Below, piece by piece: positions 34-55,440 of a stretch of DNA of 64,000 nucleotides. The DNA is taken from IMG/VR virus record IMGVR_UViG_3300028602_000006; one strand, 5' to 3'. How positions within the stretch are numbered: the first letter of the stretch is position 1; every line of letters begins with the position of its first letter. Under the pieces are notes generated by a model. That model saw nothing but the letters and a program-made list of their open reading frames with translations, made no database searches and had not been told where the DNA came from. The position numbers were made by a program, and so were the translations under genes. This DNA is from a virus (taxonomy: Duplodnaviria; Heunggongvirae; Uroviricota; Caudoviricetes).

Positions 34-60
34 TTGACTTATTTAATATCTTATGATAGG
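34..60 (+). promoter_or_regulatory. Promoter-like motif TTGACT-N12-TATGATAGG upstream of first ORF
   Basis: TTGACT at 34-39, TATGAT at 52-57, 11 nt before the ATG at 69. Same architecture recurs at 2280, 51043, 53064, 54085 and 55413. Confidence 0.4.
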
Positions 61-68
61 CTTTAGAT

Positions 69-1037
69 ATGAAAAATGGAAAAATAAAATTGATTACGAA
101 GAGTAGTCCTTTAACTGAAATAACTCCTAAATTTGATAAAGTTATTGGGCAAGCTTCAGCGATAAAGAAAATGGCGTTTTTTATAGAGACGCATGATATG
201 AGTACTCCGTTGCCAACATTTTTGCTGACGGGTTCTCATGGATTAGGGAAAACGTATATCGCCGAAAAGATTGCCAATTGTATGGGTAGGCGTTTTATTG
301 AAGTAAATAGTGGTATGTTAGATGATCAAGAAGATCTTGTCAATGAGATTCTTCTTGGTAGAGTTATAGGTGATACTCCTGCGACATTATTCTTTGATGA
401 ATCGCATCGTTTGAATTCAGAGGTGACAACGGCGCTCTTATCGTTGCTTAACCCGTCTTCTGATCATAAAAATTATTTGAACTATAAAGAGTGGAGTATA
501 GAGTTTGATATGCGAAATATAAATGTTATTTTCGCAACAACAGATGCCCATCGTATGTTCGGGCCATTAGTTAATCGTTGCGAAAGAATCTTTTTTGATT
601 CGTACAACCACGATGATTTGTTGGCAATGCTTCATCTTTATTGTCCTGATGCGTATTTTTGTTGCAATAAAGAAGACCTTACTAATGCTTGCAGGGGAAG
701 AGGTAGAGACGCCTTTCAATTGGCCGGAAAGATATCTCGCTATCTTAACCAAAAGAATACTCCTATCCTTTCTAAAATAGGTTGGGGAAGATTGAAGAAT
801 ATCTTTGAGATTTATCCTCTTGGTTTAAACCGTCAGGAAGTTGAGCTTCTTCATATCGTTAGCACTTGCGGACCAATTTCTGTTGCCAACATAGCGCTAT
901 CTATGATGCTTAACACTGACAATATCGAATCTGAAATTGAAGTTCGTCCTAGGGAACTTGGGTTACTCCAAAGTACGACGAGAGGGCGAGTTCTTACTGA
1001 GAAAGGCGAAAAATATATTAAGAAAATTAAATTTTGA
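69..1037 (+). CDS. RuvB-like AAA+ ATPase
   Basis: Walker A LLTGSHGLGKTYIA, Walker B LFFDESHRL and sensor ATTDAHR are colinear with RuvB (LLxGPPGLGKTTLA / LFIDEIHRL). Length 322 aa matches RuvB. Confidence 0.6.
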   Translation: MKNGKIKLITKSSPLTEITPKFDKVIGQASAIKKMAFFIETHDMSTPLPTFLLTGSHGLGKTYIAEKIANCMGRRFIEVNSGMLDDQEDLVNEILLGRVIGDTPATLFFDESHRLNSEVTTALLSLLNPSSDHKNYLNYKEWSIEFDMRNINVIFATTDAHRMFGPLVNRCERIFFDSYNHDDLLAMLHLYCPDAYFCCNKEDLTNACRGRGRDAFQLAGKISRYLNQKNTPILSKIGWGRLKNIFEIYPLGLNRQEVELLHIVSTCGPISVANIALSMMLNTDNIESEIEVRPRELGLLQSTTRGRVLTEKGEKYIKKIKF

Positions 1038-1223
1038 TAATGTGAAATGGGAGTAAAAAGTGGAAAAGAATGGCAAATCTGACTTGGCTGAAAAAATTGT
1101 ATCTGATATAGTAGAGGATCTAACTGATCGAAGCGGGATTGGAGATGCCTTTGAAGACTGCGATGAAGACATTCAGAAAGAAATAAAAGATACATGGGAA
1201 AGAATAGTTAGGAGACATATAAA

Positions 1224-1844
1224 ATGAATTGCTGGGAAGAATATAAAGTGAGTGACGTACCCGAGGGATCATCCGGCGAATGGAAGATAGATAGATTTGA
1301 GATAACCGCAGAAGATGCTAAATTTCAGAATATAAGAGCATCATTTTCTTTTGGCGGAAGAGGATCTTTTTTTGTTCCGGGAAAATACACTCGTTTAACT
1401 AGAGGCGGCTTGGTAATTATGTCCGATACATTTGATGAAATTAGTGATCATCTTGGGGCAATTTATCAAGCGAAAGGACATTGCTTAGTCGGAGGGCTGG
1501 GATTGGGAGTCGTTATTAATGGTTGTCTTATGAATCCTGAAGTTGACCATGTAACGGTTATAGATTTGAGCAAAGATGTTATTAATCTTGTTGGCGATCA
1601 TTATCAAAAGAAATTCGGGGATCGTTTAACCATCATTAATGACAACATAATGACTTGGAAACCGCCTAAAGGAGCGCATTATGGAATGGCTTGGTTTGAT
1701 ATATGGGATGAAATCTGCGAAGATAATCTAGAATCCATGGCCGTTTTAAATCGTCGTTTCGCTCGTAAATCGGATTGGAAGGGATGCTGGAAACAGGAAA
1801 CAATTAAATATTATAGAGACTGCAATAAAAGAAGGGGATGGTAG
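1224..1844 (+). CDS. Rossmann-fold SAM-dependent methyltransferase-like protein
   Basis: Gly-rich motif I-like VGGLGLGV, followed by an acidic beta-strand end (VTVIDLSKD) and IINDNIM. Weak assignment. Confidence 0.35.
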   Translation: MNCWEEYKVSDVPEGSSGEWKIDRFEITAEDAKFQNIRASFSFGGRGSFFVPGKYTRLTRGGLVIMSDTFDEISDHLGAIYQAKGHCLVGGLGLGVVINGCLMNPEVDHVTVIDLSKDVINLVGDHYQKKFGDRLTIINDNIMTWKPPKGAHYGMAWFDIWDEICEDNLESMAVLNRRFARKSDWKGCWKQETIKYYRDCNKRRGW

Positions 1845-2051
1845 AAATGGGTAATAGCGTCAAAATAGATTATGCATACAAAGATATATCTGAAGTTGAA
1901 GAAATTTTGGGATATACAGTAAATGAATCATTTAAAACAGGGTTTAGTATGGCAAGAATGACTAATCCCATGTTCGGAAAATTGGATAAGGCGCATAAAC
2001 AGAGGAAGAAATCGAAATCACATAAATAGTCTTTAATTAGCGGAGATAATA

Positions 2052-2303
2052 ATGCCCAATAATATTAAAGACATTATGGATGAAGAGGGTAAATGGTGCA
2101 GAATAGACGGATGTAACGGGGCAATGGAGTTGCAATGGCCATTCGGAGAAGAATGCACCTGCCATCTTGGACATCCACCATGTCATGCTTGCATTAATAT
2201 GAGGCTTACCTGTACTAAATGCGGGCATGTCATAGAAGACGAGAATTACGAAGACGACGAAGAATATAAGGGAAATGTCTTGACTCATTACATTAATTTA
2301 TGA
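2052..2303 (+). CDS. Small Cys/His-rich (zinc-binding?) hypothetical protein
   Basis: SD-like GGAGATAATAATG. Multiple CxxC/HxxC pairs (CRIDGCNG, CTCHLGHPPCHAC, CTKCGH). Confidence 0.45.
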   Translation: MPNNIKDIMDEEGKWCRIDGCNGAMELQWPFGEECTCHLGHPPCHACINMRLTCTKCGHVIEDENYEDDEEYKGNVLTHYINL

Positions 2304-2306
2304 TAG
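2280..2306 (+). promoter_or_regulatory. Promoter-like motif TTGACT-N13-TATGATAGG
   Basis: Near-identical to the motif at 34-60 (TATGATAGG shared). Lies 11 nt upstream of the small leader ORF at 2317. Confidence 0.4.
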
Positions 2307-2316
2307 GATTTGTTTT

Positions 2317-2424
2317 ATGATGGAAGTACAAAAATATATTAGGGAAAACGGTCTCGATAAACTTCGGGAAGAATTTTCGATAATTGTTACCGATTATCCT
2401 GACCGAATTGGAGCAATATTATGA
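2317..2424 (+). other. 35-aa leader ORF homologous to the N-terminus of the RNA-ligase-like gene at 7102, translationally coupled (ATGA) to the nuclease-helicase gene
   Basis: Hand translation gives MMEVQKYIRENGLDKLREEFSIIVTDYPDRIGAIL. This aligns with MTMHVQKYLREKGLKSLIDEFHIDVREYDDRIV of the 7102 ORF at roughly 60 percent identity. Its stop TGA at 2422-2424 overlaps the ATG at 2421. Confidence 0.5.
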
Positions 2425-4619
2425 ATACTATTAAACTTACGCATCCTTTTATAAATAAATGTCCTGACATTGATGAATTATTCTTCAATAAAGATGGCGA
2501 AGTTGTTTGTACGATTAACGCCTTTTGTGGTAAAATTAAAACTTTGTCAGCAAAGTACTCCGACAGGATGGATGAAAATAAATTCAAAGGTGATGCTTTA
2601 GAGTTGTTTACTGAATTTATGATCCGAACAGCGCCTGAAGACAATCGTATTGGTATTTACAACTACAAACCTATTACTGATGCAGAAGACGATGATGTCG
2701 GCGTTGATGGATTTGGGGCAGGCGAAGATGGAAATCCAGCTACAGTTCAGGTGAAGTACAGGGCCGGTAATTATGTCTTGACAGCAAATGCAGATCACCT
2801 TTCTAATTTTCTTACTGCGTCTTGGAATGACTTCGCAGTTCCTATCAATTCAAAAACAAATATGCTTATTGTCACAACAGGCCAAAAGGTAGATGAAAGA
2901 ACTCGTCAAAAGATGCTCAAAGACAAAGTGAGAGTACTTAACAGAGATTCTTTACGAAGAATGTACGATAATCGTCCTGAATGGTGGAAACGATTTTACG
3001 AATCAGTAAAAAATAACCGTTTTGCTCCTAGCCACAAACGTACCCCCATCGTTTTAAGACAGCATCAAAAAGAAGCAAAAGACGCAATCAAAAATGATAA
3101 AAACGGTAAGGGTAAAGTACTTCTTCCCACTGGAACAGGGAAAACCATAATTGAGGTCCATACAGCAATTGATTCAATCAAAGCGCTAAGGCGTAAAAAA
3201 GTAATCGCCCCCATCATTAAAGTTAATTCGAGTCGTATTCTTCTTTGCTTCCAATTAGCTGATGATTTTATTAAAGAATTCGCTATGGCAAAAATAAATG
3301 CTCGATATGTTAATTTCAATTCGGGCAAAAAAGATGAAACAGAATATGCTGAATTGATGCAACAAGAAGGGTGGGGGTATAGAAAAATTCTATCCACTAC
3401 AAATCCCCAAGAAGTTGCTAAGGTCTATGAGGATTGTAAAAAGAAAAATATGCCTTTGGTTATCTTCAGCACTTATCATTCCTCTGAAAGACTGGCTGAA
3501 AGTGGATTGGTTCCCAATATGACAATTAATGACGAAGCTCATAATCTAGTTTCTAGAAATTTTCATAGGGCCGCTAAATTACCTACTGATAGTAATATCT
3601 TCTTCACTGCGACTGAAAAGGTAACAGATTCCGATGACGGTTTGGGCATGAACAACGAGGACGTGTTTGATAATATAATTTACACAAAATCTGCAAAGGA
3701 ATTGATTGACGCAGGAGAAATGGTTCCTCCTTATCTTCATGTTGTTCGATCTTCTAACGAATGCCGCATTGATACGGATTACGAAATGATGTTTCAATCT
3801 ATCGTAGAAGCATTTAAACATCATGAAAATAAGATAAAAGAAGTGTCTTATGATGCTGAAAATATAGGCGCTAAAGTTCTTGTCGTTTGTAGAGGACAGC
3901 AGGATCTACTTCAGATGTTTAAGACAAAAGCGCTTGAACATTTTAAGACAAATTACCCTGATATCCATCTATTTGCCTTATCTTCTGAATTTGGGATGGT
4001 TAATGATGGAGAGTTCTTTGAACCTCCTGTAACAAATATCAAGAAATATCATATGTTGAAAAAACTTAAAGCTATGGGTCATAACGAGAGGGCTTTGATT
4101 TTTCATGTCGATATGATTGGGGAAGGGATTGATGTCCCCGGTGTTACAGGAATAATGCCATTTAGGAATTGTGAAGAGTCTAAATTAATTCAGAATATTG
4201 GCAGGTCAACTAGACTTCATCCTGAAGATCGTAAGCGTTTTTACAATGAAGAAATTAGCCCTAATGACCGAACAATAGGATGGATTAAACCTTATGCATG
4301 GGTTATCATCCCATCATATATGATCGATTCTGAAGGTATCGAGGCTCGTTTTAGATTTATTATAGATCGTGTCAGAAGAGAGTACGGCTACATCCCTCAA
4401 CAGCATACAGTTATAGATAATGTTGAGGGTTTAAGCGATGAAGACGAAATTGATACTGTCAATAAAATCACTAAGAAAAAGAAACAAGTAAAATCTCATA
4501 TAGAAGAATTCAAACATGAATATGAAAAAGTTTGTGTTATGGAGAAAATTATCATGGAAGATAAGTTGACTCAAAAAGAGAAGGATGTATGGGATGAACT
4601 TAAGGCTATGGGATTGTAA
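2421..4619 (+). CDS. PD-(D/E)xK-like nuclease domain fused to SF2 (DEAH) helicase; restriction-enzyme-like motor subunit
   Basis: N-terminal GVDGFG...VQVKY (D...QxK variant of PD-(D/E)xK). Helicase motifs I LLPTGTGKT, II NDEAHN, III FFTAT, and a QNIGRSTR arginine finger. Confidence 0.7.
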   Translation: MNTIKLTHPFINKCPDIDELFFNKDGEVVCTINAFCGKIKTLSAKYSDRMDENKFKGDALELFTEFMIRTAPEDNRIGIYNYKPITDAEDDDVGVDGFGAGEDGNPATVQVKYRAGNYVLTANADHLSNFLTASWNDFAVPINSKTNMLIVTTGQKVDERTRQKMLKDKVRVLNRDSLRRMYDNRPEWWKRFYESVKNNRFAPSHKRTPIVLRQHQKEAKDAIKNDKNGKGKVLLPTGTGKTIIEVHTAIDSIKALRRKKVIAPIIKVNSSRILLCFQLADDFIKEFAMAKINARYVNFNSGKKDETEYAELMQQEGWGYRKILSTTNPQEVAKVYEDCKKKNMPLVIFSTYHSSERLAESGLVPNMTINDEAHNLVSRNFHRAAKLPTDSNIFFTATEKVTDSDDGLGMNNEDVFDNIIYTKSAKELIDAGEMVPPYLHVVRSSNECRIDTDYEMMFQSIVEAFKHHENKIKEVSYDAENIGAKVLVVCRGQQDLLQMFKTKALEHFKTNYPDIHLFALSSEFGMVNDGEFFEPPVTNIKKYHMLKKLKAMGHNERALIFHVDMIGEGIDVPGVTGIMPFRNCEESKLIQNIGRSTRLHPEDRKRFYNEEISPNDRTIGWIKPYAWVIIPSYMIDSEGIEARFRFIIDRVRREYGYIPQQHTVIDNVEGLSDEDEIDTVNKITKKKKQVKSHIEEFKHEYEKVCVMEKIIMEDKLTQKEKDVWDELKAMGL

Positions 4620-4684
4620 ATATTATTGACATTGCTTGTCGGATATGTTAATCTTTTCATATCTTAAATGGTAAAGGATATTTA

Positions 4685-5881
4685 ATGAGTCAAGAAAAAA
4701 TATTGGATGCTCAAGCTGTTAGAAGTGTTTATGAGAAGTTTTCTATAGATTTGCCAAATATAGGCAATCTACAGAACGTTTTTACTCCTTATTCGCTTTG
4801 CAAGGATATGATTGGACGCCTGAAGAAGTATAAGAGGAAGTTTGAAGGAGCGAACTTCTCTGTTTTTAATCTTGAATTTGCTGAAGTTTTAATGTATGAT
4901 TATGGAGTTAAGGCAAATCAGATTTGGTTCTTTACTGATTGTGTTGAGAAGAGCAAATTCGCTCAGTTGAATAGGTATGCGGGGTTGAATGTCGAATTGG
5001 TTAATTTAAGCCGATTCTTACGGGAGAAGATTACTATGAAATTTGATGTTGTTATTATGAATCCGCCTTATCAGGCCCCTAAAGCCAAAGAGCACGAAGG
5101 GAGAGGAAAATGTGGAACATCGCTGTGGGAAGATTTTGTTAGGAAATCCTTTGAATTGGCGAAAGATGATGGATATGTTTGTGCTATTCACCCTAATAGG
5201 TGGAGAAGACCCGAGGGCAAAATTGGCGAATTAATTAAGTCAAAACAAATTCATTATCTTGAAATGCATGGACTGGAAGACGGAAGGAAAACATTTTCTT
5301 GCCAAACCGATTATGATTGGTATATTGCTCAAAACAAAAAATCAGAGACCAATACGCAAGTTGTAGACTATGATGGTGAATCAAATTCAATTGATTTGAA
5401 AAACGCTCCTTTCATTCCCAACTCCAATGTGAAAGATGTTTTGTCTCTCGTCGCAAAAGAAGGAGAAGAAAAAGTCAATTTGTTATGGAACTGTGAATAT
5501 CATACTCAAGCAAGAGCAAAAGACGGAACGATGTCACCAATACAAACCGATGAATTTAAATACCCTTGTGTTTATTCTGTAACAATCAAAGGAGAAGTTA
5601 AGTTTTGGTACTCAAGCAAAAAAGAACAATTTTTTGGAATTCCTAAGGTCATATGTTGCAATGGTCATACTATGCCAATTGTTGACAAAAATGGGGAGTA
5701 CGGATTAACTCAATTCGCATTTGGAATAGCTGATAAAAAAACAAATTTAGAAAAAATACAAAATGTTATGAATTCTGATGAATTCAGGAAAACAATAATG
5801 GGTTATAGAGATAATGGTGGCAATGTTTATGACAAGAACATGATAGCAACTTTCCGCAAAGATTTTTGGAACGAAATATGA
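4685..5881 (+). CDS. N6-adenine DNA methyltransferase (NPPY) with C-terminal putative target-recognition region
   Basis: VVIMNPPYQAP is a motif IV. Upstream NVFTPYSLCKDMI is a motif X-like element. No clear FxGxG motif I in this ORF. Confidence 0.6.
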   Translation: MSQEKILDAQAVRSVYEKFSIDLPNIGNLQNVFTPYSLCKDMIGRLKKYKRKFEGANFSVFNLEFAEVLMYDYGVKANQIWFFTDCVEKSKFAQLNRYAGLNVELVNLSRFLREKITMKFDVVIMNPPYQAPKAKEHEGRGKCGTSLWEDFVRKSFELAKDDGYVCAIHPNRWRRPEGKIGELIKSKQIHYLEMHGLEDGRKTFSCQTDYDWYIAQNKKSETNTQVVDYDGESNSIDLKNAPFIPNSNVKDVLSLVAKEGEEKVNLLWNCEYHTQARAKDGTMSPIQTDEFKYPCVYSVTIKGEVKFWYSSKKEQFFGIPKVICCNGHTMPIVDKNGEYGLTQFAFGIADKKTNLEKIQNVMNSDEFRKTIMGYRDNGGNVYDKNMIATFRKDFWNEI

Positions 5882-6453
5882 AAACCACCACAAAAACTTG
5901 TACCAAACGCCAAAATCGAAAAAAACAAACTGCTGAGGATTTTACTCCGGCATGGTTGGTTAATCAAATGCTCGACAAGTTAAATGAATATGGAAAAGAA
6001 TCATGGGAAGAAGGGAAAACTTTTCTTGATCCTGCTTGCGGGAATGGAAATATGCTCGTATGTGTTTTGAAGCGTAAAATAAAACTAGGACATGATCCAT
6101 CAGAGGCATTGAAAACTATCTATGGAACCGACATAATGGATGATAATATCAAAGAGTGTCGCTTAAGGCTCCTTAAAATTATTCAAGAAGAAGGAATTAA
6201 AATAACACTTGAGCACATTAAATCTGTGTTTAATAATATTATTGTAACGAGATTGAGTAGATACAAAAGTGGATCTCTTGACTATAATTTCAAATTCAAA
6301 AACAAAGCATCGCATAAAGATGTTATTAAGTGGTTAGACGGAATACAGAACCACAACTGGCTTGAGTTAGTGGGACACGAAAACATTAATGCCATCATAA
6401 AAAATGACGTTGAAGCTAGTTTTGTTGAAGAGAAATTTGCCGCATTCTTTTAA
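5866..6453 (+). CDS. Methyltransferase N-terminal-like fragment (motif X + motif I + post-I, no NPPY)
   Basis: FTPAWLVNQML, LDPACGNGNMLV (FxGxG-type) and IYGTDIMDD. Overlaps the previous ORF by 16 nt in another frame. Confidence 0.45.
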   Translation: MERNMKTTTKTCTKRQNRKKQTAEDFTPAWLVNQMLDKLNEYGKESWEEGKTFLDPACGNGNMLVCVLKRKIKLGHDPSEALKTIYGTDIMDDNIKECRLRLLKIIQEEGIKITLEHIKSVFNNIIVTRLSRYKSGSLDYNFKFKNKASHKDVIKWLDGIQNHNWLELVGHENINAIIKNDVEASFVEEKFAAFF

Positions 6454-6531
6454 AGGAGTTTTGTTGGCTTTTCTTGTATAATATGTACATGAGAGCGACC
6501 AATAAACTCGTAGAAATTAGATATTTAATAA

Positions 6532-6596
6532 GGCTCTACCTAAGTAGGATCTGGGAGTTTGGTCGCTTTCACCTACTTGGGGACGAGCCTTTTTTA
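6532..6596 (+). terminator. Long-stem rho-independent terminator
   Basis: GGCTC...CTAAGTAGG...CCTACTTGG...GAGCC nested stems are followed by TTTTTTATT. It also carries three copies of AGCGACCAA (two direct, one inverted). Confidence 0.5.
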
Positions 6597-6775
6597 TTCC
6601 AGTTAAGGAGAGCGACCAAAAATGAAAGACGAAATAGAAATTGTAGTGCGATTGAGCGAAATTGCATCGAAAAGATTAGATAAATTGCGAATAGATGGGA
6701 TTGATATAATATTCGACTTACACAACGATGTAGAAGAATATGTTAATGTTTGGCTGATAGGATTAGAGGTCAATT

Positions 6776-7055
6776 ATGCAAACTAAAACATGTTCAATTT
6801 GTAAAGAAGATCTATCTATACATAACTTTTACAAAGATAAGAAGTCTCCTGACAGGCATAGTTATCGATATTTTCGGATGGTATGAAGTGGTCAAACTAT
6901 GGAGGTAGAACGGGATGGCAAATAGATCATATCATTCCTTGTGCAAAATTTGACTTGACAGATGTAAAAGAACAGCAAAAATGTTTTCATTATTTAAATT
7001 TACGACCTTTATGGGGAAAGGACAATCAGAATAAAGCTGCAAAAATTGCTTGACA
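6776..7055 (+). pseudogene. HNH endonuclease, apparently frameshifted (zinc-finger N-part and HNH core in different frames)
   Basis: Frame 1 reads MQTKTCSICKEDLSIHNFYKDKKSPDRHSYRYFRMV*. The +1 frame continues ...GGRTGWQIDHIIPCAKFDLTDV...NLRPLWGKDNQNK* (HNH D-H-I...N...N). The shift lies near the T-run ATTTTC at about 6878. Confidence 0.45.
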
Positions 7056-7078
7056 TTTATCATCGAATCATATACAAT
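7050..7078 (+). promoter_or_regulatory. Sigma70-like promoter (TTGACA-17-TACAAT)
   Basis: TTGACA at 7050-7055 with a 17-nt spacer to TACAAT at 7073-7078. Lies 24 nt upstream of the rnl-like ATG. Confidence 0.55.
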
Positions 7079-7101
7079 GACGTAAACAATGGAGAAATAT
7101 T

Positions 7102-8546: not shown

Positions 8547-8574
8547 TTGATTTTTGGTCTAGTTATAGTATAAT
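8547..8574 (+). promoter_or_regulatory. Sigma70-like promoter (TTGATT-16-TATAAT)
   Basis: TTGATT at 8547 with a 16-nt spacer to a perfect TATAAT at 8569-8574. Lies upstream of 8602. Confidence 0.5.
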
Positions 8575-8601: not shown

Positions 8602-9411
8602 TTGAAAGGAATAAATATGAAGATACATTTGTTGACGATTGATCCTCAGCGAGATTTCTGTAGTCCAAACGGCGCTCTTTTTGTTCAGGATGCAGATCAA
8701 GACATGATTCGTTTAGCGGCAATGGTTGACCGTTTGCGCAATAAAATTGATGATATCCACGTTACGCTGGATAGCCACAATGAAGTAGACATTGCTCACC
8801 CTATATTCTGGATTGATTCTAACGGAGCGCATCCTAATCCCTTTACTATTATTACAGAAGAGGATGTTGTCAAGGGTGTATGGACAACTACTAGGCCAAC
8901 ATGCCGCCAGCGAGCAGTTGATTATGTTAAAGCCTTAGCTTCCAACGGGCGCTACCCTCTTTGTATTTGGCCTCCTCACTGTATTATCGGTACAGAAGGA
9001 TGGACAATTCAGCAGCCTCTTGCTGACTCATTGTCAAATTGGTGCAAAGATCGCTTTAAGAAAGTAGATTATCAGGTTAAGGGTTCAAACGTATTTACTG
9101 AGCACTATAGCGTTTTCAGGGCAGATGTAATAGATCCGTCTGATCCATCAACGATGTTAAACACTGATCTCATTAAGGTTATTTCTGAAGCTGACGAAAT
9201 TTTGATCGCTGGCGAAGCAAGAAGCCATTGTGTCAATCATAGTTTTCGTGATCTTATCGGGGAACTTGGCAAGGAACACGCTCAGAAGTTCATTCTTCTT
9301 GAGGACGCTATGAGTGATGTAACGGGATTCGAAAATCTTGGAAAACAGTTTTTCGATGATATGATAGCTCTCGGCGTAAAATCAACCACAACTAAAGATT
9401 ATCTTGCATAA
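8602..9411 (+). CDS. Isochorismatase-family cysteine hydrolase (nicotinamidase PncA-like)
   Basis: N-terminal LLTIDPQRDFC (Asp of the D-K-C triad) and C-terminal GEARSHCVNHS (catalytic Cys context). Confidence 0.5.
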   Translation: MKGINMKIHLLTIDPQRDFCSPNGALFVQDADQDMIRLAAMVDRLRNKIDDIHVTLDSHNEVDIAHPIFWIDSNGAHPNPFTIITEEDVVKGVWTTTRPTCRQRAVDYVKALASNGRYPLCIWPPHCIIGTEGWTIQQPLADSLSNWCKDRFKKVDYQVKGSNVFTEHYSVFRADVIDPSDPSTMLNTDLIKVISEADEILIAGEARSHCVNHSFRDLIGELGKEHAQKFILLEDAMSDVTGFENLGKQFFDDMIALGVKSTTTKDYLA

Positions 9412-13909: not shown

Positions 13910-15109
13910 ATGAACAACGAGAATAAATCCGGTTTAACCTTATTCACTGTTATGATAATGCTGGCGTTTTTATCTATAGTGGGGGTATATGCATACAACG
14001 CTATGAGGACGGACATCTATATTTCTAACAATTATAGAGAAGGAGTTGAAGCTTTTTGTCAGGCCGATGCGGGTATTTTTTATGTTAGGGGATTAATAGA
14101 GCAACAGCTTAAAGAGGATACTCTTATATTTGTGGATGGGGATAACTCAGTTTTTTATGAGCCTCCCGAAGGATTTACATTCTTGCCTATCACTAATATA
14201 CATAAGATATCTGAGGGTATATATTGCTATGAATGTACAGGAAAGAAGAATAATTCTAGCGCTACGGTTAAGGTGGTTGTGGCCAGAAAACCTCTCCTTA
14301 TGGCAGGGCTGTTGGGGGATTTAAGATTAAACATACAACCTTTGGTGAATATTTATAGCTATGATTCCATAAGTACATTTAATCCTATTCCTTCAGACAG
14401 TTCATCAGAAGCAACCATCGGTTCAAATTTTTTAATAGAAATATCTCCCGGAGTATTTATCGACGGAGAGATAGAGATTGGACAGTCACCTGATGGGATA
14501 CCTGCTGTAATTGTGGGGGATTTAGCAGCTCCAATAGTTGATTTTGGAAGATTTGAAGAAGATCCGCTCGGCGCTATTGGAGGAGAAATTGAATCACAAT
14601 TTATCGAATATATGCAACCTGTTAATAATAACAATTTATTGGTAGATCCTCCTCAGGCAGTAGTCGGTACGGAACTATTTATGAAGAAAAATACTGCAAC
14701 TCAATTTGTTACACTAGAGGCGGGAAATTATTATCTCACTGATATTCAAATCGGTCCAGACTGTGTATTAACAATTGATGACTCAAACGGTCCCGTTAAC
14801 ATTTATCTGGACGGAGAAATGTATGCAGGCCCAGGTAGCGACATAAATAGCCCATCGCCATTGTCTTTCAGTATTTTTTCTAGGGCAGAAGATCCTATTT
14901 TAGTGCAACCAAACGGGAGTTTTGACGGGTTTATATATGCGCCATTTTCAGAAGTTACTATGAAACCGGGGAATGATGGTCATGGTGTTGTATGGGGAGA
15001 TAAAGTATATTTGTATCCTCAGGGCGATTGGTATATTGATATAAATCTTTTAAAGAGATTTTTGTCGAAAGAATTATATTTTATGAGCTGGAAAGAAATT
15101 AGAAACTGA
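13910..15109 (+). CDS. PilX-like (type IV pilus minor pilin/assembly) N-terminal domain protein
   Basis: GLTLFTVMIMLAFLSIVGVYAYNAMRTDIYISNNYREGVEAFCQADAGIFY resembles the PilX_N pattern (hydrophobic helix ... AfqAAEAGl). Confidence 0.35.
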   Translation: MNNENKSGLTLFTVMIMLAFLSIVGVYAYNAMRTDIYISNNYREGVEAFCQADAGIFYVRGLIEQQLKEDTLIFVDGDNSVFYEPPEGFTFLPITNIHKISEGIYCYECTGKKNNSSATVKVVVARKPLLMAGLLGDLRLNIQPLVNIYSYDSISTFNPIPSDSSSEATIGSNFLIEISPGVFIDGEIEIGQSPDGIPAVIVGDLAAPIVDFGRFEEDPLGAIGGEIESQFIEYMQPVNNNNLLVDPPQAVVGTELFMKKNTATQFVTLEAGNYYLTDIQIGPDCVLTIDDSNGPVNIYLDGEMYAGPGSDINSPSPLSFSIFSRAEDPILVQPNGSFDGFIYAPFSEVTMKPGNDGHGVVWGDKVYLYPQGDWYIDINLLKRFLSKELYFMSWKEIRN

Positions 15110-15119: not shown

Positions 15120-15147
15120 TTGACTTAAAGCCCATATATGATATAGT
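15120..15147 (+). promoter_or_regulatory. Promoter (TTGACT ... TATGAT / TATAGT)
   Basis: TTGACT at 15120, N11, TATGAT at 15137-15142, then TATAGT. Lies about 40 nt upstream of nadE. Confidence 0.45.
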
Positions 15148-17939: not shown

Positions 17940-18020
17940 TTTCTTTTATTCTCCATCTTATGTATAATAATTTTGTCGATTCATTGATGGAATTTAGTTA
18001 TAAATCAAAGGAGAAAAAAT

Positions 18021-18689: not shown

Positions 18690-18857
18690 GTGATATCAGC
18701 GGAGATATAGACGGAGGGACTTTTAGCACAAAGCAATTCATGAAGGTATATGAGATTATTTGCAATAATTTCTTAAAAAGATGCTTGACATTCAGTCTGC
18801 TATATGCGAAGATGCTGAATAATTGATAGTTGAATAATAATTAGAAAGGATATAATC

Positions 18858-20276: not shown

Positions 20277-20408
20277 CGTCGGGTAGCTTAGTTGGGAAGG
20301 TAAATGTAACCCTGTCGTTCGTCACTCATGATATCATGATGACGACTTCAAAGCGTAGGGCAAGGAACGGCTCTAAGATCGGTGGTTCGAATCCATCCCC
20401 GACGACCA
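20277..20408 (+). tRNA. tRNA-like gene, atypically long (132 nt) with about 56-nt insertion; isotype undetermined
   Basis: 7-bp acceptor CGTCGGG/CCCGACG, discriminator A, CCA encoded. D-arm GCTT-AGTTGGGA-AGGT. Canonical T-arm GGTGG-TTCGAAT-CCATC. Central palindromic hairpin TCATGATATCATGA interrupts the anticodon region. Confidence 0.5.
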
Positions 20409-28573: not shown

Positions 28574-28597
28574 CTTGCATTATCATGGCATATATAG
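28574..28597 (+). promoter_or_regulatory. Promoter-like TTGCAT-N12-TATAGT
   Basis: Same N12 spacing as the TTGACT-N12-TATGA(G/T) family. Lies upstream of 28610. Confidence 0.3.
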
Positions 28598-28609
28598 TAA
28601 TATATTACC

Positions 28610-28867
28610 ATGAAGATAGAAGAAAAATTATGGCGGACTTTAATCAGGGTAGAACGATATGACAGCAAGAATATCTACGTGGTAATTCCGGGATATAACG
28701 TTAATGAAGAAATTACAATACCAAAATCAATAATTCCCGAAGATGTCTTAGTGGTTATTGAAACTGAAATTGACGAAGAAGAAATTTATCGTTTTCATGT
28801 ACAATGCAATATCGGGGCAAAAAGCAAAGAAGACTTGATTTTTGCTCCTCCTTGGGAATGCGAATGA
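28610..28867 (+). CDS. Hypothetical protein
   Basis: Stop overlaps the GNAT start (ATGA). Confidence 0.35.
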   Translation: MKIEEKLWRTLIRVERYDSKNIYVVIPGYNVNEEITIPKSIIPEDVLVVIETEIDEEEIYRFHVQCNIGAKSKEDLIFAPPWECE

Positions 28868-30166: not shown

Positions 30167-30907
30167 ATGGCAACTTTTTGGTTTATTAGACATGGGGAAT
30201 CTACAGCGCAGGCCAAGCCCGATGTAATAGGTGGTAGATCTCCGGACGCCGAAATAACCACCGTAGGTGCTTCGCAAGCTAGGGCGTTGGGATACTGCTT
30301 GGGGAAGGATAAAACACTTATTGGTGGATTTGATGACCTATGGAGATCAACGCTTATTCGAGCCAAGCAAACTTGTGATCTTATGATGGCAGAGATGGGA
30401 AGTTCATGCGAGCGCCCCATGAATACCCCGTCACCAATAGTAGATTCACGTCTAATTGAACTTGATCAAGGTAAATGGCAAGGGGAAGATAGAAAAAGTG
30501 TATATACTCCGCATATGATCCAACTGATAGAATCGAATACGTTGCATTTTTGCGCTCCGGGAGGAGAATCACAATTTCAAGTAACAGAGAGAATGCTTTC
30601 TTGGTTATATGATGCTTTACGCTTGGCTAGAACCAATCGAACTTTAAGAGAATCAATAATGCCATCGTTACGCAGTTTAAATGAATCTGATTACAATATA
30701 GCAGTCGTAGGACATGGATATGCGATTAGATGTTTATTGTGCAATCTATTTGATATACCAAACCGACAGGCCTTTCATATTAAGATCGATAACTGCTCAA
30801 TTACGAAAGTAAGAATATGGAGTGACGATTTCGACCATTTGGAAAATAATCTAAAATGTAATTTGGATTGCCTAAATTTTGTGTACCCTGATGTTAAATA
30901 TGCTTGA
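30167..30907 (+). CDS. Histidine phosphatase (phosphoglycerate mutase-like superfamily)
   Basis: N-terminal RHGE motif FWFIRHGESTAQ. Second His context VVGHGYAIR. Confidence 0.6.
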   Translation: MATFWFIRHGESTAQAKPDVIGGRSPDAEITTVGASQARALGYCLGKDKTLIGGFDDLWRSTLIRAKQTCDLMMAEMGSSCERPMNTPSPIVDSRLIELDQGKWQGEDRKSVYTPHMIQLIESNTLHFCAPGGESQFQVTERMLSWLYDALRLARTNRTLRESIMPSLRSLNESDYNIAVVGHGYAIRCLLCNLFDIPNRQAFHIKIDNCSITKVRIWSDDFDHLENNLKCNLDCLNFVYPDVKYA

Positions 30908-30931
30908 CAATGTATTTATTTACGATATACT
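30904..30931 (+). promoter_or_regulatory. Sigma70-like promoter (TTGACA-16-TATACT)
   Basis: TTGACA at 30904 and TATACT at 30926. Lies upstream of 30943. Confidence 0.45.
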
Positions 30932-32384: not shown

Positions 32385-32433
32385 CGAAAAAGTCCCTTGG
32401 AGAATTGTATAATGATCCAAGGGACTTTTTTCA
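32385..32433. terminator. Bidirectional rho-independent terminator
   Basis: AAAAAGTCCCTTGG-loop-CCAAGGGACTTTTTTC. Perfect 11-bp stem with an A-run and a T-run. Confidence 0.7.
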
Positions 32434-36544: not shown

Positions 36545-36548
36545 TTTG

Positions 36549-36577
36549 ATCGAAATCAAAAAAATATGTATAATAAT
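36549..36577 (+). promoter_or_regulatory. Extended -10 promoter (TTGATC-15-TGTATAAT)
   Basis: TTGATC...TG-TATAAT with 17-nt overall spacing. No SD-led ORF for about 170 nt downstream. Confidence 0.45.
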
Positions 36578-36980
36578 TAGAAATGAGTATTCCATTTTTA
36601 AATCTTACGCTAAAAATACAGCGAATTTTGCGCTCACTTGCCGGCGCTGCTATAAACACTTTTGTCTACCTTACGTATTTTAAACAAATTCGAGAGGAAG
36701 TTATTAGACCATTAGGAAAAGAAAACAGTCCAACCCAAAAGGCAAGCGGATATGAATACAGAACAAACTTTAGAAGATCTTATTGTTAAGGCGAAAGAAT
36801 GCGATTTGTTTTATAAAGATCCTCCCGCACCTGAAACATGCGAGTTTCTATCTTGCGAAAATCCTGCCGTCTTGTACCTAGAACGATTTCATGTCTGCGT
36901 TGCCCATGGATTTAGATTAATTCAATGCTTGACAGAAAAGCCATTAAATGATACTGTAGATCAGAATAGTAATAATATAA

Positions 36981-47044: not shown

Positions 47045-47400
47045 GACGCAAAAAGAGTTATATGAGAACCTAAAAAGCATCAGAGAGAATGAAGCTCTCT
47101 CAAAATATCTTGAAGAGATATTTCAAATACTTCATAATAAGTTTAGTGACATAACGACAGAAGGTAAAAAAATTCTTGACATAGAATAAACAGAGGCTAT
47201 ATTAGTAGCAACAAAGGTAGATATGTTAATAGCTTTTATATTACTAGTATTTCTTTATGGAATACAAACATGGAGAGTTAAAAAGTGGAAGTGGAACTAT
47301 GAGCGTCTACTTAGGGATTATCACAGATTAGAAGAAAGGTATATAACGGAATAATGACTAAAAATAAACAGATTGTATAGTCAAATACATAACGACAGAA
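47007..47400 (+). repeat. Three dispersed copies of TAACGACAGAAGGTAA(C/A)AAAG at successive small-gene junctions
   Basis: Copies at 47007-47027, 47152-47172 and 47380-47400, with a partial copy at 46755-46776. Each encodes a -TTEG(N/K)K C-terminus and supplies the GAAGGT SD for the next small ORF (ATGs at 47037, 47223, 47421). Confidence 0.6.
47176..47203 (+). promoter_or_regulatory. Sigma70-like promoter (TTGACA-16-TATATT)
   Basis: TTGACA at 47176 and TATATT at 47198. Confidence 0.4.
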
Positions 47401-47501: not shown

Positions 47502-48731
47502 CTACCCAGACACTAAAGATGTCTGGGTTTCGTGACTCGCAGGCTCGTCTAACGACAACGCCTCCTCACGTTTTTGTTTTGATTCCGACTGTATTCCACA
47601 ACCAGAATTGTAAATCATTAATCCTTGACTGAGGGCTTCGCCTGCAAGTCTCAGCCCTTGCTCCAATATATTTTTTGAAGCATTGATGTCTCTATCTAGT
47701 TTAGCACCACAAACAGGACAAACCCATTTTCTATCTTTCAATGTCAAATCCTGATTAACAAACTTACACTTGTTACAGGTTTTGCTTGAAGGGAAGAACT
47801 TATCTATTTGAATTAGGTTTCGTTCATTCCATTCCGATTTATACTTCAGTTGTCTTAGGAATTCGCTCCAAGAACAATCTGAAATACTTTTTGCTAGGTT
47901 ATGGTTTTTCATCATATTTGCAACAGATAAGTCCTCAACACAGATCGTTTGATTCTCACGAACTATTTGAGTTGTTATGTTATGGATATGATTTAGCCTA
48001 CTGTTTGTGATTTTCTCATGAACTCTAGCAACTTTGATTCGTTGTCTATTCCTACTACTTGATCCTTTTTGTTTTTTACTGAGTTGTTTCTGCTCATAAG
48101 AAAGTTTTTTAGCATACTTATTAGTAGTTTTTATGTTCTCATAGATTTTGCCATCAGAACATATTGCTAAATCTTTAATTCCTAAATCAACTCCTACTTG
48201 ATTTTTGTTCTTTTTATATGGAGCGTGTTCGGTTTCACAGGTAATAGAAACAAAATACTTACCTGATGGATTTTTGGAAATGGTTGAAAAGAGTATTGTT
48301 CCTTCAAGTGGTCTATCCTCTTTTACCTTGATGGGTTGTTTGAATTTAGGTATCTCTAGTTTCCCATTCTCATACTTAGTTGATTGAGGAATACGAAATG
48401 ATTGTTTGTCTTTCTTGGATTTGAATCGTGGGAACTTACCTTGTTTTGAAAAGAATCGGTTGTAAGCTACTTCTAAGTCTCTTAATGAAGCTTGAACTGA
48501 CTGAGAGTTAGTTTCTTTAAGCCAACTATATTCGTCTTGTTTCTTTAGCTTAGTGAGAGAGGATGCATTGTCATAATAGTTTAAAGAAGTGTTGTTTTCA
48601 AGATAGGCGTTTTTTCGTTCATTAAGAAAATGGTTCCATACAAATCTTTTAGCCCCGAAGTGTTTAGCCAATAGGACTTCTTGATCCTTAGTTGGGTATA
48701 TTCGATATTTAAATGACTTCTTTATTTTCAT
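47502..48731 (-). CDS. tnpB: TnpB (IS200/IS605-family OrfB, RuvC-like plus zinc finger)
   Basis: C-terminal CNKCKFVNQD...WVCPVCGAKLDRDINASKNI. The 3' end overlaps the perfect hairpin CCCAGACA-CTAAAGA-TGTCTGGG (47505-47527). No adjacent tnpA. Confidence 0.75.
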   Translation of the reverse strand: MKIKKSFKYRIYPTKDQEVLLAKHFGAKRFVWNHFLNERKNAYLENNTSLNYYDNASSLTKLKKQDEYSWLKETNSQSVQASLRDLEVAYNRFFSKQGKFPRFKSKKDKQSFRIPQSTKYENGKLEIPKFKQPIKVKEDRPLEGTILFSTISKNPSGKYFVSITCETEHAPYKKNKNQVGVDLGIKDLAICSDGKIYENIKTTNKYAKKLSYEQKQLSKKQKGSSSRNRQRIKVARVHEKITNSRLNHIHNITTQIVRENQTICVEDLSVANMMKNHNLAKSISDCSWSEFLRQLKYKSEWNERNLIQIDKFFPSSKTCNKCKFVNQDLTLKDRKWVCPVCGAKLDRDINASKNILEQGLRLAGEALSQGLMIYNSGCGIQSESKQKREEALSLDEPASHETQTSLVSG

Positions 48732-48734: not shown

Positions 48735-49202
48735 TTATTTATAATTTTTATCCAAAATAGATACATTTTTACCACTAAATACGCAACATGTTAGTATCCC
48801 GCTTTCTAATATCTTTACACCATCATATTTATGAATATCTTGAATGACATTGTTTATAACCCAACTTGTGCTAACATCATCTATATCTGGTCTAGATAGC
48901 AATTGCGTTTCGACATTAGAATCGTTAAATTTTATCCCGATGTCAGAAAATAGGAATTCAATGTCTCCGTCATCTATATTTATTGTATCATCCATATCAT
49001 ACGCTGTTAAATCTAAGTAGTTAGAGGCGGATAATCTCACGGTATATAGGACGTTTGCCTTTTTGCCTTCTGTAGACCAACTAATATAGTCAGATGCCAT
49101 ATTTTTATCACTAGTAAACCAACTGTAATCATTAAATTGATCAAAATCTTTTACTGATCCATGATACCATAACTCGGCAGATGCTATTTTATATATTCTC
49201 AT
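48735..49202 (-). CDS. Hypothetical protein directly upstream of the solo tnpB
   Basis: Same strand as tnpB, 3-nt gap. No HuH motif, so not TnpA. Confidence 0.4.
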   Translation of the reverse strand: MRIYKIASAELWYHGSVKDFDQFNDYSWFTSDKNMASDYISWSTEGKKANVLYTVRLSASNYLDLTAYDMDDTINIDDGDIEFLFSDIGIKFNDSNVETQLLSRPDIDDVSTSWVINNVIQDIHKYDGVKILESGILTCCVFSGKNVSILDKNYK

Positions 49203-49348
49203 GCTTAATAATTCACTAAAAATTTAATTTATACCTTCTTATTCTAAAAATATTTACAAAATCCTTCTTTTTTTGCAGGAATTTTCCACTTTATTTTTGA
49301 ATAATATATTGGTACTTGAAAACATTAAGGAATCCTGTATAATATAAA

Positions 49349-49708
49349 ATGAAAACAAAAGAATGCCGATTCAGTAAAAAATGCCCCTTATGGGATATGA
49401 CTTTGAACGGGGCAGAATGGTGCGATGGCGATGCAATTGGTATAGATTTTGAGAGATGTCCAAAGCCTAAAAAGTGCAAGGAGGCATTGAAATCTTTGAC
49501 TGCGGGAAAAATGAGCGACTTTCATCTATATTATAAGCTTCCTTATTGTGCAAGCATGGTTAATGGAGAGTCTGAAAATCGATGTCAGATTCTTCGTTCA
49601 GATACAGAAAAAATTGTTACCTATGCATCCACCCCAAAGAAAGCTGAACAAATTTGTAAAAAGTTTTCTAAAACAGGAATCCTTCCAAAAATGAATAATT
49701 GTAACTAA
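49349..49708 (+). CDS. Cys-rich hypothetical protein
   Basis: Several Cys pairs (CRFSKKCPLW, CDGD, CPKPKKC). Confidence 0.35.
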   Translation: MKTKECRFSKKCPLWDMTLNGAEWCDGDAIGIDFERCPKPKKCKEALKSLTAGKMSDFHLYYKLPYCASMVNGESENRCQILRSDTEKIVTYASTPKKAEQICKKFSKTGILPKMNNCN

Positions 49709-49735
49709 GTTAAAAACTTTAAAAGGATAAATGAA

Positions 49736-51042: not shown

Positions 51043-51075
51043 TTGACTAATTGAAAAGAATATGAGATGATGTTG
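51043..51075 (+). promoter_or_regulatory. Promoter-like motif TTGACTAATT-N8-TATGAGATGATGTT
   Basis: Near-identical to 53064-53095 and 55413-55440. Lies upstream of 51108. Confidence 0.45.
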
Positions 51076-51107
51076 TCTGTAATAGCTGAGAAAGAAGTAA
51101 AAAGGAA

Positions 51108-53057: not shown

Positions 53058-53063
53058 ATCTTA

Positions 53064-53095
53064 TTGACTAATTCCCCAAAGCATGAGATGATGTT
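53064..53095 (+). promoter_or_regulatory. Promoter-like motif TTGACTAATT-N8-CATGAGATGATGTT
   Basis: Copy of the 51043 motif. Lies upstream of 53121. Confidence 0.45.
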
Positions 53096-53120
53096 CAGAA
53101 ATAATTGAAAAGGAACTGAT

Positions 53121-53558
53121 ATGAAAAAATTAACTATGGCATGGAAAAAGGGGGAGAAGGAGTTTCATTCTATTTATGGCGTAAAAAATGATTTTGCCCT
53201 TGAACTTCTTATTATGAAAGCTATTCCAATCTCTATGAAAGATGCAAGTAAGTTAGGTCTTAAAAATACCTCTTCAGATCAAATTGTAACATTTATAACC
53301 GCAAAAGAAGCATCTAAATATCTTGAATCAAAAGGGTGGAAGTGGGTTAATATTATTAAAGGACGACAAATGAGCAAGAAAACAGACGATTTTAAAGAGT
53401 GGGGAGATGCATGGGTATATTGCAATCAGCATCTTCGGGTACATAAGACGGGTTGGTGTACCGTTAGTGTTAATAACAAGGTCTGCGTATGCTCTGGCGA
53501 AAAGACAGAGGATGAAGCTGAAAAGAAATGCAAAAAATGGGGGTTCAAAATTGTATGA
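53121..53558 (+). CDS. Hypothetical protein
   Basis: No motif. Confidence 0.35.
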   Translation: MKKLTMAWKKGEKEFHSIYGVKNDFALELLIMKAIPISMKDASKLGLKNTSSDQIVTFITAKEASKYLESKGWKWVNIIKGRQMSKKTDDFKEWGDAWVYCNQHLRVHKTGWCTVSVNNKVCVCSGEKTEDEAEKKCKKWGFKIV

Positions 53559-54084
53559 GCAAGAAAACAGACGCATTTAATTCACTTCCTGACTTTCAAA
53601 AATGGAAGACACAGAAAGAACAAAAGGGGAATGAATAGTGCAACTTGATATTGATGTAGATGTTTTAATACAAAGTATCTCTATAGGTAGAAGTATAAAT
53701 AATGAAGACGCTTTTGCTTTAATAGCAGGTATTGACGAAAGAATAGCCGATTATGACTTCACTAAAAGGTTGGCAGATCATTTCACAAATATTATTAAAA
53801 AAGAAGACGAAATCAAGGACTAATGTGAAAATATTTGGAAGAACATTTCTTTTCCCCATATTGATACATAAGACAGAGAGTGGTTATAGCGGGCAACCCA
53901 ATCTAACTGTACGATGGAACAAGAGTCGTATGGCGGGAACTATGAAAACCACAAGTTATACTCTTGAAATATGTACCAAGACAAAAAAATGGCAATGGGC
54001 ATTTGTTTGGAGGCCAGATGTTACTCGTCATTGGTGGGTCACAAGTAAGAAAAAAATACCTAATTATTCTTATAAAATTAAAGC

Positions 54085-54108
54085 TTGACTTATCTCCCCA
54101 AATATGGT
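54085..54108 (+). promoter_or_regulatory. Promoter-like motif TTGACT-N12-TATGGT
   Basis: Same architecture. Lies upstream of 54141. Confidence 0.35.
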
Positions 54109-54140
54109 CTAATGTCTTTAAAGAATAAAGAAAGGCAGAT

Positions 54141-54638
54141 ATGAAAGAAGTAAAAATGACCGCACATGTTCTTAACACCATAGACACATTCTTGAAAAAT
54201 GGAAAGGATGCCCTAATGGACGTTTCTAATGGCTATAAACCATCTCCAAAATGGCGTGATTGTACTCTAAATGATTTTTATAATGCCGTACATATATGCC
54301 ACCTCCTGCAAAATGAGAAATTCGAAAAAGCAAATGAACTTCTCGAATCAGTAGATGCCTCAATATTGCCGTGGACTATCAGAAAGTGGATAGATAAATG
54401 GTTTGAGGCGCATATAAAACAAATGAAAGATCATCCGTTTGACAAAAATTTAGCGCCAAAAGGATATTATGCGGTAATCCAAAGTAAAGTGGAACGAGAA
54501 GAGTCTTCATGTTCAGGCTGTGCTTTTAATGTATTTAATGTAAGTTCTTCTTGCGGACCGGATCGCCCCTGTTGCCAAGATGAAAGACCCGATAAACAAT
54601 TCGTCATTTTTAAGAAAAGAAAGACAAGTAAACATTAA
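54141..54638 (+). CDS. Hypothetical protein
   Basis: SD AAAGGCAGATATG. Confidence 0.35.
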   Translation: MKEVKMTAHVLNTIDTFLKNGKDALMDVSNGYKPSPKWRDCTLNDFYNAVHICHLLQNEKFEKANELLESVDASILPWTIRKWIDKWFEAHIKQMKDHPFDKNLAPKGYYAVIQSKVEREESSCSGCAFNVFNVSSSCGPDRPCCQDERPDKQFVIFKKRKTSKH

Positions 54639-55412
54639 TTAAAGTCAGCGCCAAATAAGATAATTTCGAAAACGTCTTATGCGGCCTTCAAGCAGGGTTC
54701 CCCGGATTAATTTCCGGTTGGCTGACAGTTGTTATATGGAATGATATCTAAAAACATATGATTACCGTAACCCGCACCAATTTTTAATCAAGGAGAATAT
54801 ATGATGCGAGAATCACAAAAAGAAAAAATAGCCCATTATAATGATCGAATGGGCTGTCAATTGCGGTGGATTCTCAGAAAAAGAACTCTTCCAAGGTAGA
54901 AGGCAATAATATGGAAAATCAATATAATTTAAGCGATGACGATATCGGAGACTTGCTTACTGGATATGCCGATGGAGAACGACGAGTAATGCAAGAAACA
55001 GGAATGGAAATTGATGAGATTGAGGAATGGGGATTGAATCATAATATCGAAAAATGCCCTACTTGCGGTTGCTGGACTGAATCTCATAACTTGTTACCCG
55101 ATGAACCCGATGACAGCGACGAACCTGACGGATTTTGTGACAATTGCCGTTAAAATTAAGAGGAAAAAAGAATGAAACTCTATGGAACTATAGGCCCAAA
55201 TTGCGAACACTTCCGATTTATACGAGGAAGACATACCGGAGGAGGAACATATCTGTGGCAACGAGTCGAATGTAAATGCCTCTTCCATCTATTCGGATTA
55301 AACTGGGGTAAGAAAAAATGGAGAATCACTGGATCACCCATTAGAGAACACGAATGTAATTATTACGAAATAAATAGCTAATGTCCAAAGGTAAAAGAAC
55401 TCAATAAATGGC

Positions 55413-55440
55413 TTGACTAATTCCAAATAATATGAGATGC
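55413..55440 (+). promoter_or_regulatory. Promoter-like motif TTGACTAATT-N8-TATGAGATGC with no downstream + gene before the IS element
   Basis: Third copy of the 51043-type motif. Followed by a GC-rich patch and then the IS200/IS605 element. Confidence 0.35.

Follow-up and report, generated by a model that had tools for sequence, protein, structure and literature searches.

The window analysed here, 64,000 nucleotides of a tailed phage (Caudoviricetes; IMG/VR record IMGVR_UViG_3300028602_000006), is the first 64 kb of the 182,571-bp ENA metagenome contig ERZ27250894:k141_2398814. It carries a family of promoter-like motifs, described at first as TTGACT and TATGA(G/T) set 12 nt apart, whose identity is the subject of this analysis. 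The GC content is ~36%, the genes lie nearly all on the + strand and the intergenic share is 16%. The gene content is that of a large phage: a RuvB-like AAA+ protein, helicases, methyltransferases, an Rnl1-type RNA ligase, NAD synthase, PARP and NADAR, along with a radical-SAM aminomutase and elements of the insertion sequence (IS) types IS200/IS605 and IS607. Megablast with 20 kb of the window found no DNA-level similarity to known phages, and the PARP and helicase proteins, used in tblastn, matched only distant relatives in jumbo phages or cyanophages, uninformative on the host. Relatives were fetched starting from the NAD synthase and sigma proteins. The closest, L083/L087 (Logan SRR11702755), is ~90-93% identical to the window; more distant ones are L084, L085, L086, L101-L103 and L001, and one relative of the lineage has a 368-kb contig.

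Nine + strand sites align on a common TG; they are written here as -35 hexamer, spacer length, the last five spacer bases in brackets, and downstream hexamer. The first, at 34..62 (TTGACT-17-[TATGa]-TAGGCT), has its predicted transcription start (+1) at 69, the A of the RuvB-like AAA+ ATG. For the second, at 2280..2309 (TTGACT-18-[TATGa]-TAGGAT), the predicted +1 is at ~2316, beside the ATG (2317) of a 35-codon RNA-ligase 5' stub. A methyltransferase gene (4685) lies 30 nt downstream of 4626..4654 (TTGACA-17-[TATGt]-TAATCT), while 15120..15147 (TTGACT-16-[TATGa]-TATAGT) precedes the NAD synthase gene (15187) and 18785..18813 (TTGACA-17-[TATGc]-GAAGAT) the PARP gene (18858). Further along, a small lipoprotein-like open reading frame (ORF) at 51108 is preceded by 51043..51071 (TTGACT-17-[TATGa]-GATGAT), ORF 53121 by 53064..53092 (TTGACT-17-[CATGa]-GATGAT) and ORF 54141 by 54085..54113 (TTGACT-17-[TATGg]-TCTAAT). 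The ninth site, 55413..55441 (TTGACT-17-[TATGa]-GATGCC), is a truncated copy of the 51043/53064 type in which the T at -7 is lost. All copies listed in the preliminary description are present, each within 1 nt of where it was placed: the one given as 28574 starts at 28575, and the hexamer read as TATGAG at 53064 is CATGAG. The sites at 4626 and 18785 are additional members that came from a looser search. The claim that every copy lies 10-45 nt upstream of a + strand start breaks down at 55413, where the next + strand gene (55799) is ~360 nt away.

The motif is strongly overrepresented. TTGACT-N11-13-TATGRK has 6 matches in the window, all on the + strand, against 0.19 expected, and the looser core TTGACW-N11-13-YATG has 11 against 2.14. 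The nine + strand matches to the looser core are every one intergenic or at a gene end; the two on the - strand lie inside coding sequence and represent the background rate. A further search gives 7 matches against 0.18 expected. The enrichment over shuffled sequence anticipated in the preliminary description is thus borne out, with a bias of strand and of position toward gene boundaries. With a generic sigma-70 matrix, the window yields 19 strong + strand sites and 8 - strand sites, where ~4.9 would be expected on each strand; 11 of the 19 fall in the intergenic 16%.

All nine TG-aligned sites have the form TTGAC(T/A)-N11-13-(T/C)ATG-n-hexamer. The -35 is TTGACT or TTGACA at every one, the TG is part of TATG at eight and of CATG at one, and 17 nt separate the -35 from the downstream hexamer at seven sites; at 15120 the distance is 16 nt, at 2280 18 nt. 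One base past the TG, NANNNT is found at 7/9 of the + strand sites and at 0/2 of the - strand background sites (~10% expected by chance). A-11 is present at eight of the nine sites, T-7 at eight and both at seven, the exceptions being 54085 and the truncated 55413. A-11 and T-7 are the bases that a sigma-70 -10 box hardly loses; a G is not needed in it. When the sites are read with the 12-nt spacer, the last hexamer base is T at only 5/9 sites and it is a G that is invariant. A separate consensus promoter scan reads 2280, 15120, 51043 and 53064 as promoters with TG and a 16-18 nt spacer. The apparent 12-nt spacer arises because TATGA(G/T), which is TRTG plus one base plus the first base of the hexamer, was taken as the -10 box. 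The register of the preliminary description was therefore wrong, the true -35/-10 distance being 16-18 nt, and the alternative it had offered, a TG-extended -10, is essentially right: TATG is TRTG and the hexamer starts one base later. Likewise, TATAGT in the copy at 28575..28603 (+; TTGCAT-17-TAATAT, predicted +1 at 28610, the ATG) is the TATA-g portion of a -16 region. TTGACT itself, for which an UP-element role had been considered, is a true -35; the UP role would be filled by a separate A-tract at -45 to -40, seen in TG and non-TG promoters (A at -42 in up to 21/28). C at -36 occurs in 22/28 promoters, again in both groups. In the A-tract and C-36 the promoters agree with the proximal UP-element subsite and with the tcTTGACat consensus of classical promoters.

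Comparison with relatives and between paralogs separates the functional bases from the spacer. Between promoter 34 and its ortholog in L087, 7/12 spacer bases and 4/6 of the bases before the ATG have changed, whereas TTGACT, TATGATAGGCT and both distances are unchanged; the architecture of this promoter recurs in L085, L101, L102 and L103. The NAD synthase promoter at 15120 is 100% conserved in L083, and its L084 ortholog reads TTGACA-17-[AATGa]-TACCGT. Orthologs of the PARP promoter read TTGACT-17-[TCTGc]-CATACT in L084, TTGACA-16-[TTTGt]-TAATAT in L085 and TTGACA-17-[TATGt]-AATGAT in L086. Promoter 8547 has a mutated spacer in L083 with both hexamers intact. Across 4-6 lineages the promoters of the PARP, sigma and RuvB-like genes keep TTGAC, N12, TG, A-11 and T-7. 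The two bases before the TG vary among orthologs (TCTG, TTTG, AATG), while the TG itself is retained. Between the paralogs 51043 and 53064, 8/9 spacer bases differ and the flanks TTGACTAATT and ATGAGATGATGTT are identical, through GATGATGTT; the conservation therefore spans the downstream hexamer.

The motifs are accordingly read, with a probability of about three in four, as real and ordinary sigma-70-family (sigma-A-type) extended -10 promoters of a large uncultivated phage, the likely reader being the holoenzyme of the host primary sigma. They represent a known promoter kind in an undescribed phage lineage and are not a new promoter class. The order of elements seen in the sequence is an A-tract at about -45 to -40 resembling a proximal UP element, C-36, a near-consensus -35, and a spacer of 16-18 nt whose last five bases, (T/A)ATG-n, form the extended -10 of the Gram-positive TRTGn or '-16 region' kind; a degenerate -10 hexamer that keeps A-11 and T-7 comes last. 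By analogy with established sigma-70 biology, region 4.2 would bind the -35, region 3.0 would touch the TG and region 2 would capture A-11 and T-7, so that a strong -35 and the TG could make up for a poor hexamer. For annotation of the lineage, the usable model is A-tract, cTTGACW, N12, WATG-A-TAnnnT.

Had the original register been correct, TATGAN would be the -10 and TTGACT a -30 box 12 nt upstream of it, used by an activator or by sigma appropriation as in the MotA/AsiA system of phage T4. In T4 middle promoters the activator box lies 11-13 bp upstream of the -10, and the likeness extends to a TAnnnT-like hexamer 11-13 nt downstream of the box; TATGAT, moreover, matches TATAAT at 5/6 positions and recurs at many sites. 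The likeness is superficial, and this reading is very improbable. The 12-nt-register hexamer lacks the final T in 4/9 sites and decays among the orthologs of the PARP, sigma and RuvB-like promoters to TCTGCC, TTTGTT, TATGTA or AATGCA, and conservation runs 5-8 nt past TATGAN, so that the comparative data put the -10 5 nt further downstream. Among 60 TTGAC[ATG]-N11-13-NNTG sites in the relatives' loci, NANNNT is found in 29 in the 17-nt register and in 19 in the 12-nt register, and 15 of these 19 fit both, solely through the frequent A at -13 and the T at -12. The MotA box, with the consensus (a/t)(a/t)(a/t)TGCTT(t/c)A, is centred at -30; the box here is TTGAC(T/A) at every site and not the MotA box TTTGCTTTA. 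The window proteins scanned, which comprise part of the ORFs (118 kb of the contig lie beyond the window), include no match to MotA or AsiA.

The position of the predicted +1 also bears on the register. Taken 7 nt past the hexamer, it falls 0-2 nt from an ATG at 34, 2280, 28575, 36546 and 49316, and the chance of that many coincidences is estimated at ~2%; in the 12-nt register the predicted +1 misses these ATGs by 5 nt. With the hexamer 6-7 nt before the ATG at several promoters, the transcripts would probably be leaderless, and several genes are thus probably expressed from leaderless mRNAs, as the TG-extended register predicts. Relatives share the start of the RuvB-like protein, with stop codons a short way upstream of it, and the same hexamer-ATG geometry is seen at 736 in L087 and at ~21040 in L083. 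In the stretches 34-71, 2280-2319, 28575-28612, 36546-36585 and 49316-49351, the hexamer lies 5-8 nt before the ATG and there is no Shine-Dalgarno sequence. In L083 (20886-21086), an insertion of ~190 nt parts the conserved 28.6-kb promoter from its gene (compare 28604-28612 in the window); the insertion carries a promoter of its own, TTGCAT-17-TATTGT, which restores the hexamer-N6-ATG spacing.

Promoters of classical spacing, which the preliminary description had set apart from the motif family, were found as well. These are 7050..7078 (+; TTGACA-17-TACAAT), with a strong -10 and no TG, at the RNA ligase gene; the non-TG sites 8547..8574 (+; TTGATT-16-TATAAT), 30904..30931 (+; TTGACA-16-TATACT) and 47176..47203 (+; TTGACA-16-TATATT); and 36546..36574 (+; TTGATC-17-TATAAT), which is also a member of the TGTATAAT family described below. 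Two more lie at 49316..49343 (+; TTGAAA-16-TATAAT), with the predicted +1 near the ATG at 49349, and at 57733..57760 (+; TTGAAA-16-TAGAAT), in front of ORF 57800. TG-type promoters are intermingled with non-TG ones along the genome. The -10 matches TATAAT at a mean of 3.7/6 positions with TG and 5.25/6 without (p = 0.003, for sets picked once the data had been seen). The sites appear to belong to one promoter class, in which elements compensate for each other as usual, rather than to two; the separate class read by a phage-specified factor, as once proposed, does not emerge from sites that differ only by the usual trade-off between -10 and TG.

The cellular homologs of the phage NAD synthase (~52% identity) belong nearly all to Negativicutes and other Bacillota, among them Sporomusa, Selenomonas, Schwartzia, Pectinatus and Desulforamulus. 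The similarity of this auxiliary gene suggests that the host is probably a member of the Bacillota, a group in which TRTG promoters are common; the re-registered motif, too, suggests that the host has a transcription apparatus of Bacillota type. The TnpB of the IS element was tried for the same purpose and set aside, its matches being at most 49% identical, scattered over many phyla and uninformative.

The lineage has sigma factors of its own. At 2..37 (+) the window begins with the 3' end of an RpoD-like sigma gene cut by the contig end, its last 11 codons (KNKRGRPKKTS) and stop. The stub is identical to the C-terminus of P0132, a 300-aa Sigma70_r2/r4 protein of L087, and the TGA with which it ends is part of the -35 (TTGACT) of promoter 34. 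Full sigma genes, coding for ~260-300 aa, are found in L087 (1699-2601), L083 (9026-9817), L085 (1762-2613) and L101-L103, and the gene order sigma-then-RuvB-like is conserved in L085, L101, L102 and L103. The best NCBIfam match of the relatives' sigma-70-family proteins is the RpoD C-terminal domain, well below the cut-off. L083 has a second sigma gene, at the place that an unrelated 399-aa gene (13910-15109) takes in the window.

It is conceivable, then, that the phage RpoD-like sigma, alone or with the host sigma, reads the TG-type sites, above all the TTGACTAATT...TGaGATGAT modules of the 51-55 kb cluster, as a phage-specific class that resembles the host consensus. Such proteins are encoded by the relatives and by the gene that ends at 2-37, whose regions 2.4 and 4.2 presumably keep primary-sigma-like recognition residues, as judged from a manual comparison with E. 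coli sigma-70. We consider this unlikely. The motif, with its canonical -35, TGn and TAnnnT, is indistinguishable from a host-type consensus, and the interleaved TG and non-TG sites differ only in -10 strength. Beyond the 11-codon stub, no sigma gene was found inside the window by Pfam on ~55% of the proteome or by tblastn with two relatives' sigmas. The sigma gene itself stands behind a TG-type promoter in 5/5 lineages examined, TTGACA-N12-(T/A)ATG-n followed by TATCTT, AATTAT, TAGTAT, TAATAT or TAGTCT. This promoter must fire before any phage sigma exists, and the polymerase that pre-dates the phage sigma must therefore read the TG type; the phage sigma gene would be early and host-transcribed. 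Also unlikely is a variant in which the sites with weak -10, TG and perfect -35, especially TTGACTAATT-N9-ATGAGATGATGTT, are tuned to the phage's truncated RpoD-like sigma (~300 aa, regions 2-4 only), which would displace the host sigma and hold core polymerase on phage promoters of host-like appearance that the phage factor reads by preference. If this were true, the sigma gene behind such a promoter would form a positive feedback loop.

Several points weigh against reading the motifs as ordinary host-read promoters, besides the choice of the TG and non-TG sets mentioned above. Some of the hexamers are poor (GATGAT, GAAGAT, TCTAAT), and 54085 is without A at -11. The 12-nt register gives a plausible WATGAT at ~60% of sites, A being the usual base at -13 and T at -12, and single sites are not always discriminating. 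The lineage's RpoD-like sigma factors might read the same elements, and the basis of the host assignment is a single gene.

The closest known counterpart is the Gram-positive extended -10 promoter, 5'-TRTGNTATAAT-3' with TG at -15/-14 (PMC5036317; also PMC6212719), whose TRTGn '-16 region' was described in sigma-A promoters by Voskuil and Chambliss (as cited in PMC5036317). Promoters of this kind are frequent in low-GC Bacillota and their phages. Like them, the phage sites have TRTG one base before the hexamer and a TTGACA-type -35 at 17 +/- 1 nt; unlike the usual '-16 region' sites, they pair weak hexamers (GATGAT, GAAGAT, TAGGCT) with a near-perfect -35, and -13 is nearly always A, giving the consensus WATGATAnnnT. 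In the TGn promoters of E. coli (sigma-70 region 3.0, formerly 2.5), the TG occupies the same position and compensates for weak elements. In these E. coli promoters a poor -35 box is typical, whereas the phage sites have an excellent -35 and a poor -10. A further counterpart is the Bacillus phage SPO1, with its early promoters and its cascade from host sigma to phage sigma (PMC13401047): the phage here is likewise large, with a probable Bacillota host and consensus-like host-type promoters before early or metabolic genes and before the phage sigma gene. The window showed no middle or late motifs of SPO1 type; the two phages are unrelated at the sequence level, and the sites here show no consensus distinct from that of the host primary sigma, in contrast to promoters of the gp28/gp34-type sigmas. 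There is also a likeness to the PeSL cassettes of T4-type phages (PMC2839356, PMC4122927), near-identical early-type promoters standing mosaically before small variable ORFs; that reading was rejected, no stem-loop being joined to the promoter copies here.

The cluster at 51-55 kb holds the most similar copies. The promoters at 51043, 53064 and 55413 are paralogous modules, and the first two front small ORFs. Of three copies initially taken as near-identical, 51043 and 53064 do share the full ATGAGATGATGTT; 55413 diverges after ATGAGATG, loses T-7 and continues into C-rich sequence, with no + strand gene directly behind it. The 30 nt upstream of 51043 are common to 54085, and this mosaic pattern suggests recombination between promoter copies. 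An exact-pattern scan for TTGACTAATT-N9-ATGAGATG gave 0 matches in viral contigs; its 13 matches in JGI metagenomes were all unrelated chance ones and were discarded. Clear paralogy and mosaicism of three copies, and a copy at 55413 that drives no gene, are what would be seen if the copies were non-functional, as repeats spread by recombination or duplication or as chance matches in AT-rich intergenic DNA. That explanation has very little probability: it does not account for the enrichment over shuffles with a strict strand and position bias, nor for functional bases kept while spacers drift, between paralogs as between lineages. No stem-loop or other repeat structure accompanies the copies, and the 70 nt upstream of the four copies at 51-55 kb fold no better than shuffles (z -0.3 to +1.8).

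Beyond 55413 lie a doubtful - strand ORF and then a tnpA-tnpB pair of IS200/IS605 type. Most simply, 55413 would be a remnant truncated by an insertion or rearrangement, in which the IS element may have had a part. A possible restored junction (...GAGATG joined to ATGTT...) is found at 57590, where, given the size of the region, chance alone would be expected to supply the 5-mer. The element lies in the stretch 55441-57590, with tnpA at 55799-56212, tnpB at 56209-57282 and inverted-like flanks, C-rich at 55441-55468 and G-rich at 57497-57545. A second tnpB lies at 47502-48731 (-), adjoining a 155-aa ORF at 48735-49202 (-) that is presumed to be tnpA and has no family match; blastn between the two IS200/IS605-type elements, run to define their ends, found no similarity. 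Just past the first element, two perfect 33-nt direct repeats, AGCATGTTTTTATGAGAAAAAACATGTAGAAAT, each internally palindromic, lie at 57588-57620 and 57624-57656, adjoined by the tandem words TAGATCCAC x2 and GAGAGAGTTGAT x2. An IS607-like recombinase with MerR helix-turn-helix and resolvase domains is encoded at 60049-60735.

Another promoter-like family, TGTATAAT(A), comprises 7 copies, all of them intergenic and on the + strand (p ~2e-6 for the 8-mer): 6475-6482, 17961-17968, 27296-27303, 32406-32413, 36567-36574, 49336-49343 and 59795-59802. At 4-5 of these sites a -35 cannot be recognised, and the TG directly adjoins the hexamer, whereas in TGnTATAAT one base lies between them. The sites at 17963 and 27298 are conserved in L083 though the upstream sequence diverges, and the site at 32408 lies within the loop of a terminator hairpin. 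The family may represent a promoter type dominated by the -10, or else be what the phage sigma targets. In a search of the intergenic DNA for enriched k-mers, no third, non-sigma-70 motif appeared; only TATAAT/TGTATAAT, A-runs and the Shine-Dalgarno-like AAAGGA and TAGGAG were enriched. Downstream of the copy at 6477 is a ~140-nt non-coding stretch (6483-6621) in which GAGCGACCAA words recur and a hairpin precedes a T-run (GGCTCTACCTAAGTAGG...CCTACTTGGGGACGAGCCTTTTTT). It has no Rfam match, and could be a small RNA or an attenuator-type leader.

The ORF behind promoter 2280 (2317-2424, 35 codons) duplicates the 5' end of the RNA ligase gene, and its stop overlaps the helicase start (2421). The relative's ligase N-terminus is more similar to this ORF than to the window's own ligase (7102), and the helicase-methyltransferase block (2421-7100) is absent from L087. 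This suggests that a module of ~4.7 kb was inserted into the 5' end of a ligase gene.

A tRNA-like gene at 20277-20405 (+), missed by ARAGORN and by a whole-window Rfam scan, scores 40.7 bits against the Rfam tRNA model (gathering score 29) in a search restricted to the region. Its D-loop contains a hairpin insert of ~55 nt, its anticodon loop is 9 nt long and its CCA end is encoded. NAD-related genes form a cluster: an isochorismatase/nicotinamidase-like gene (8602-9411), the glutamine-dependent NAD synthase (15187-17250), PARP with a WGR domain (18858-20192) and NADAR (32456-33028). The cluster may be a module for NAD salvage or ADP-ribosylation, perhaps aimed at NAD-depleting host defences.

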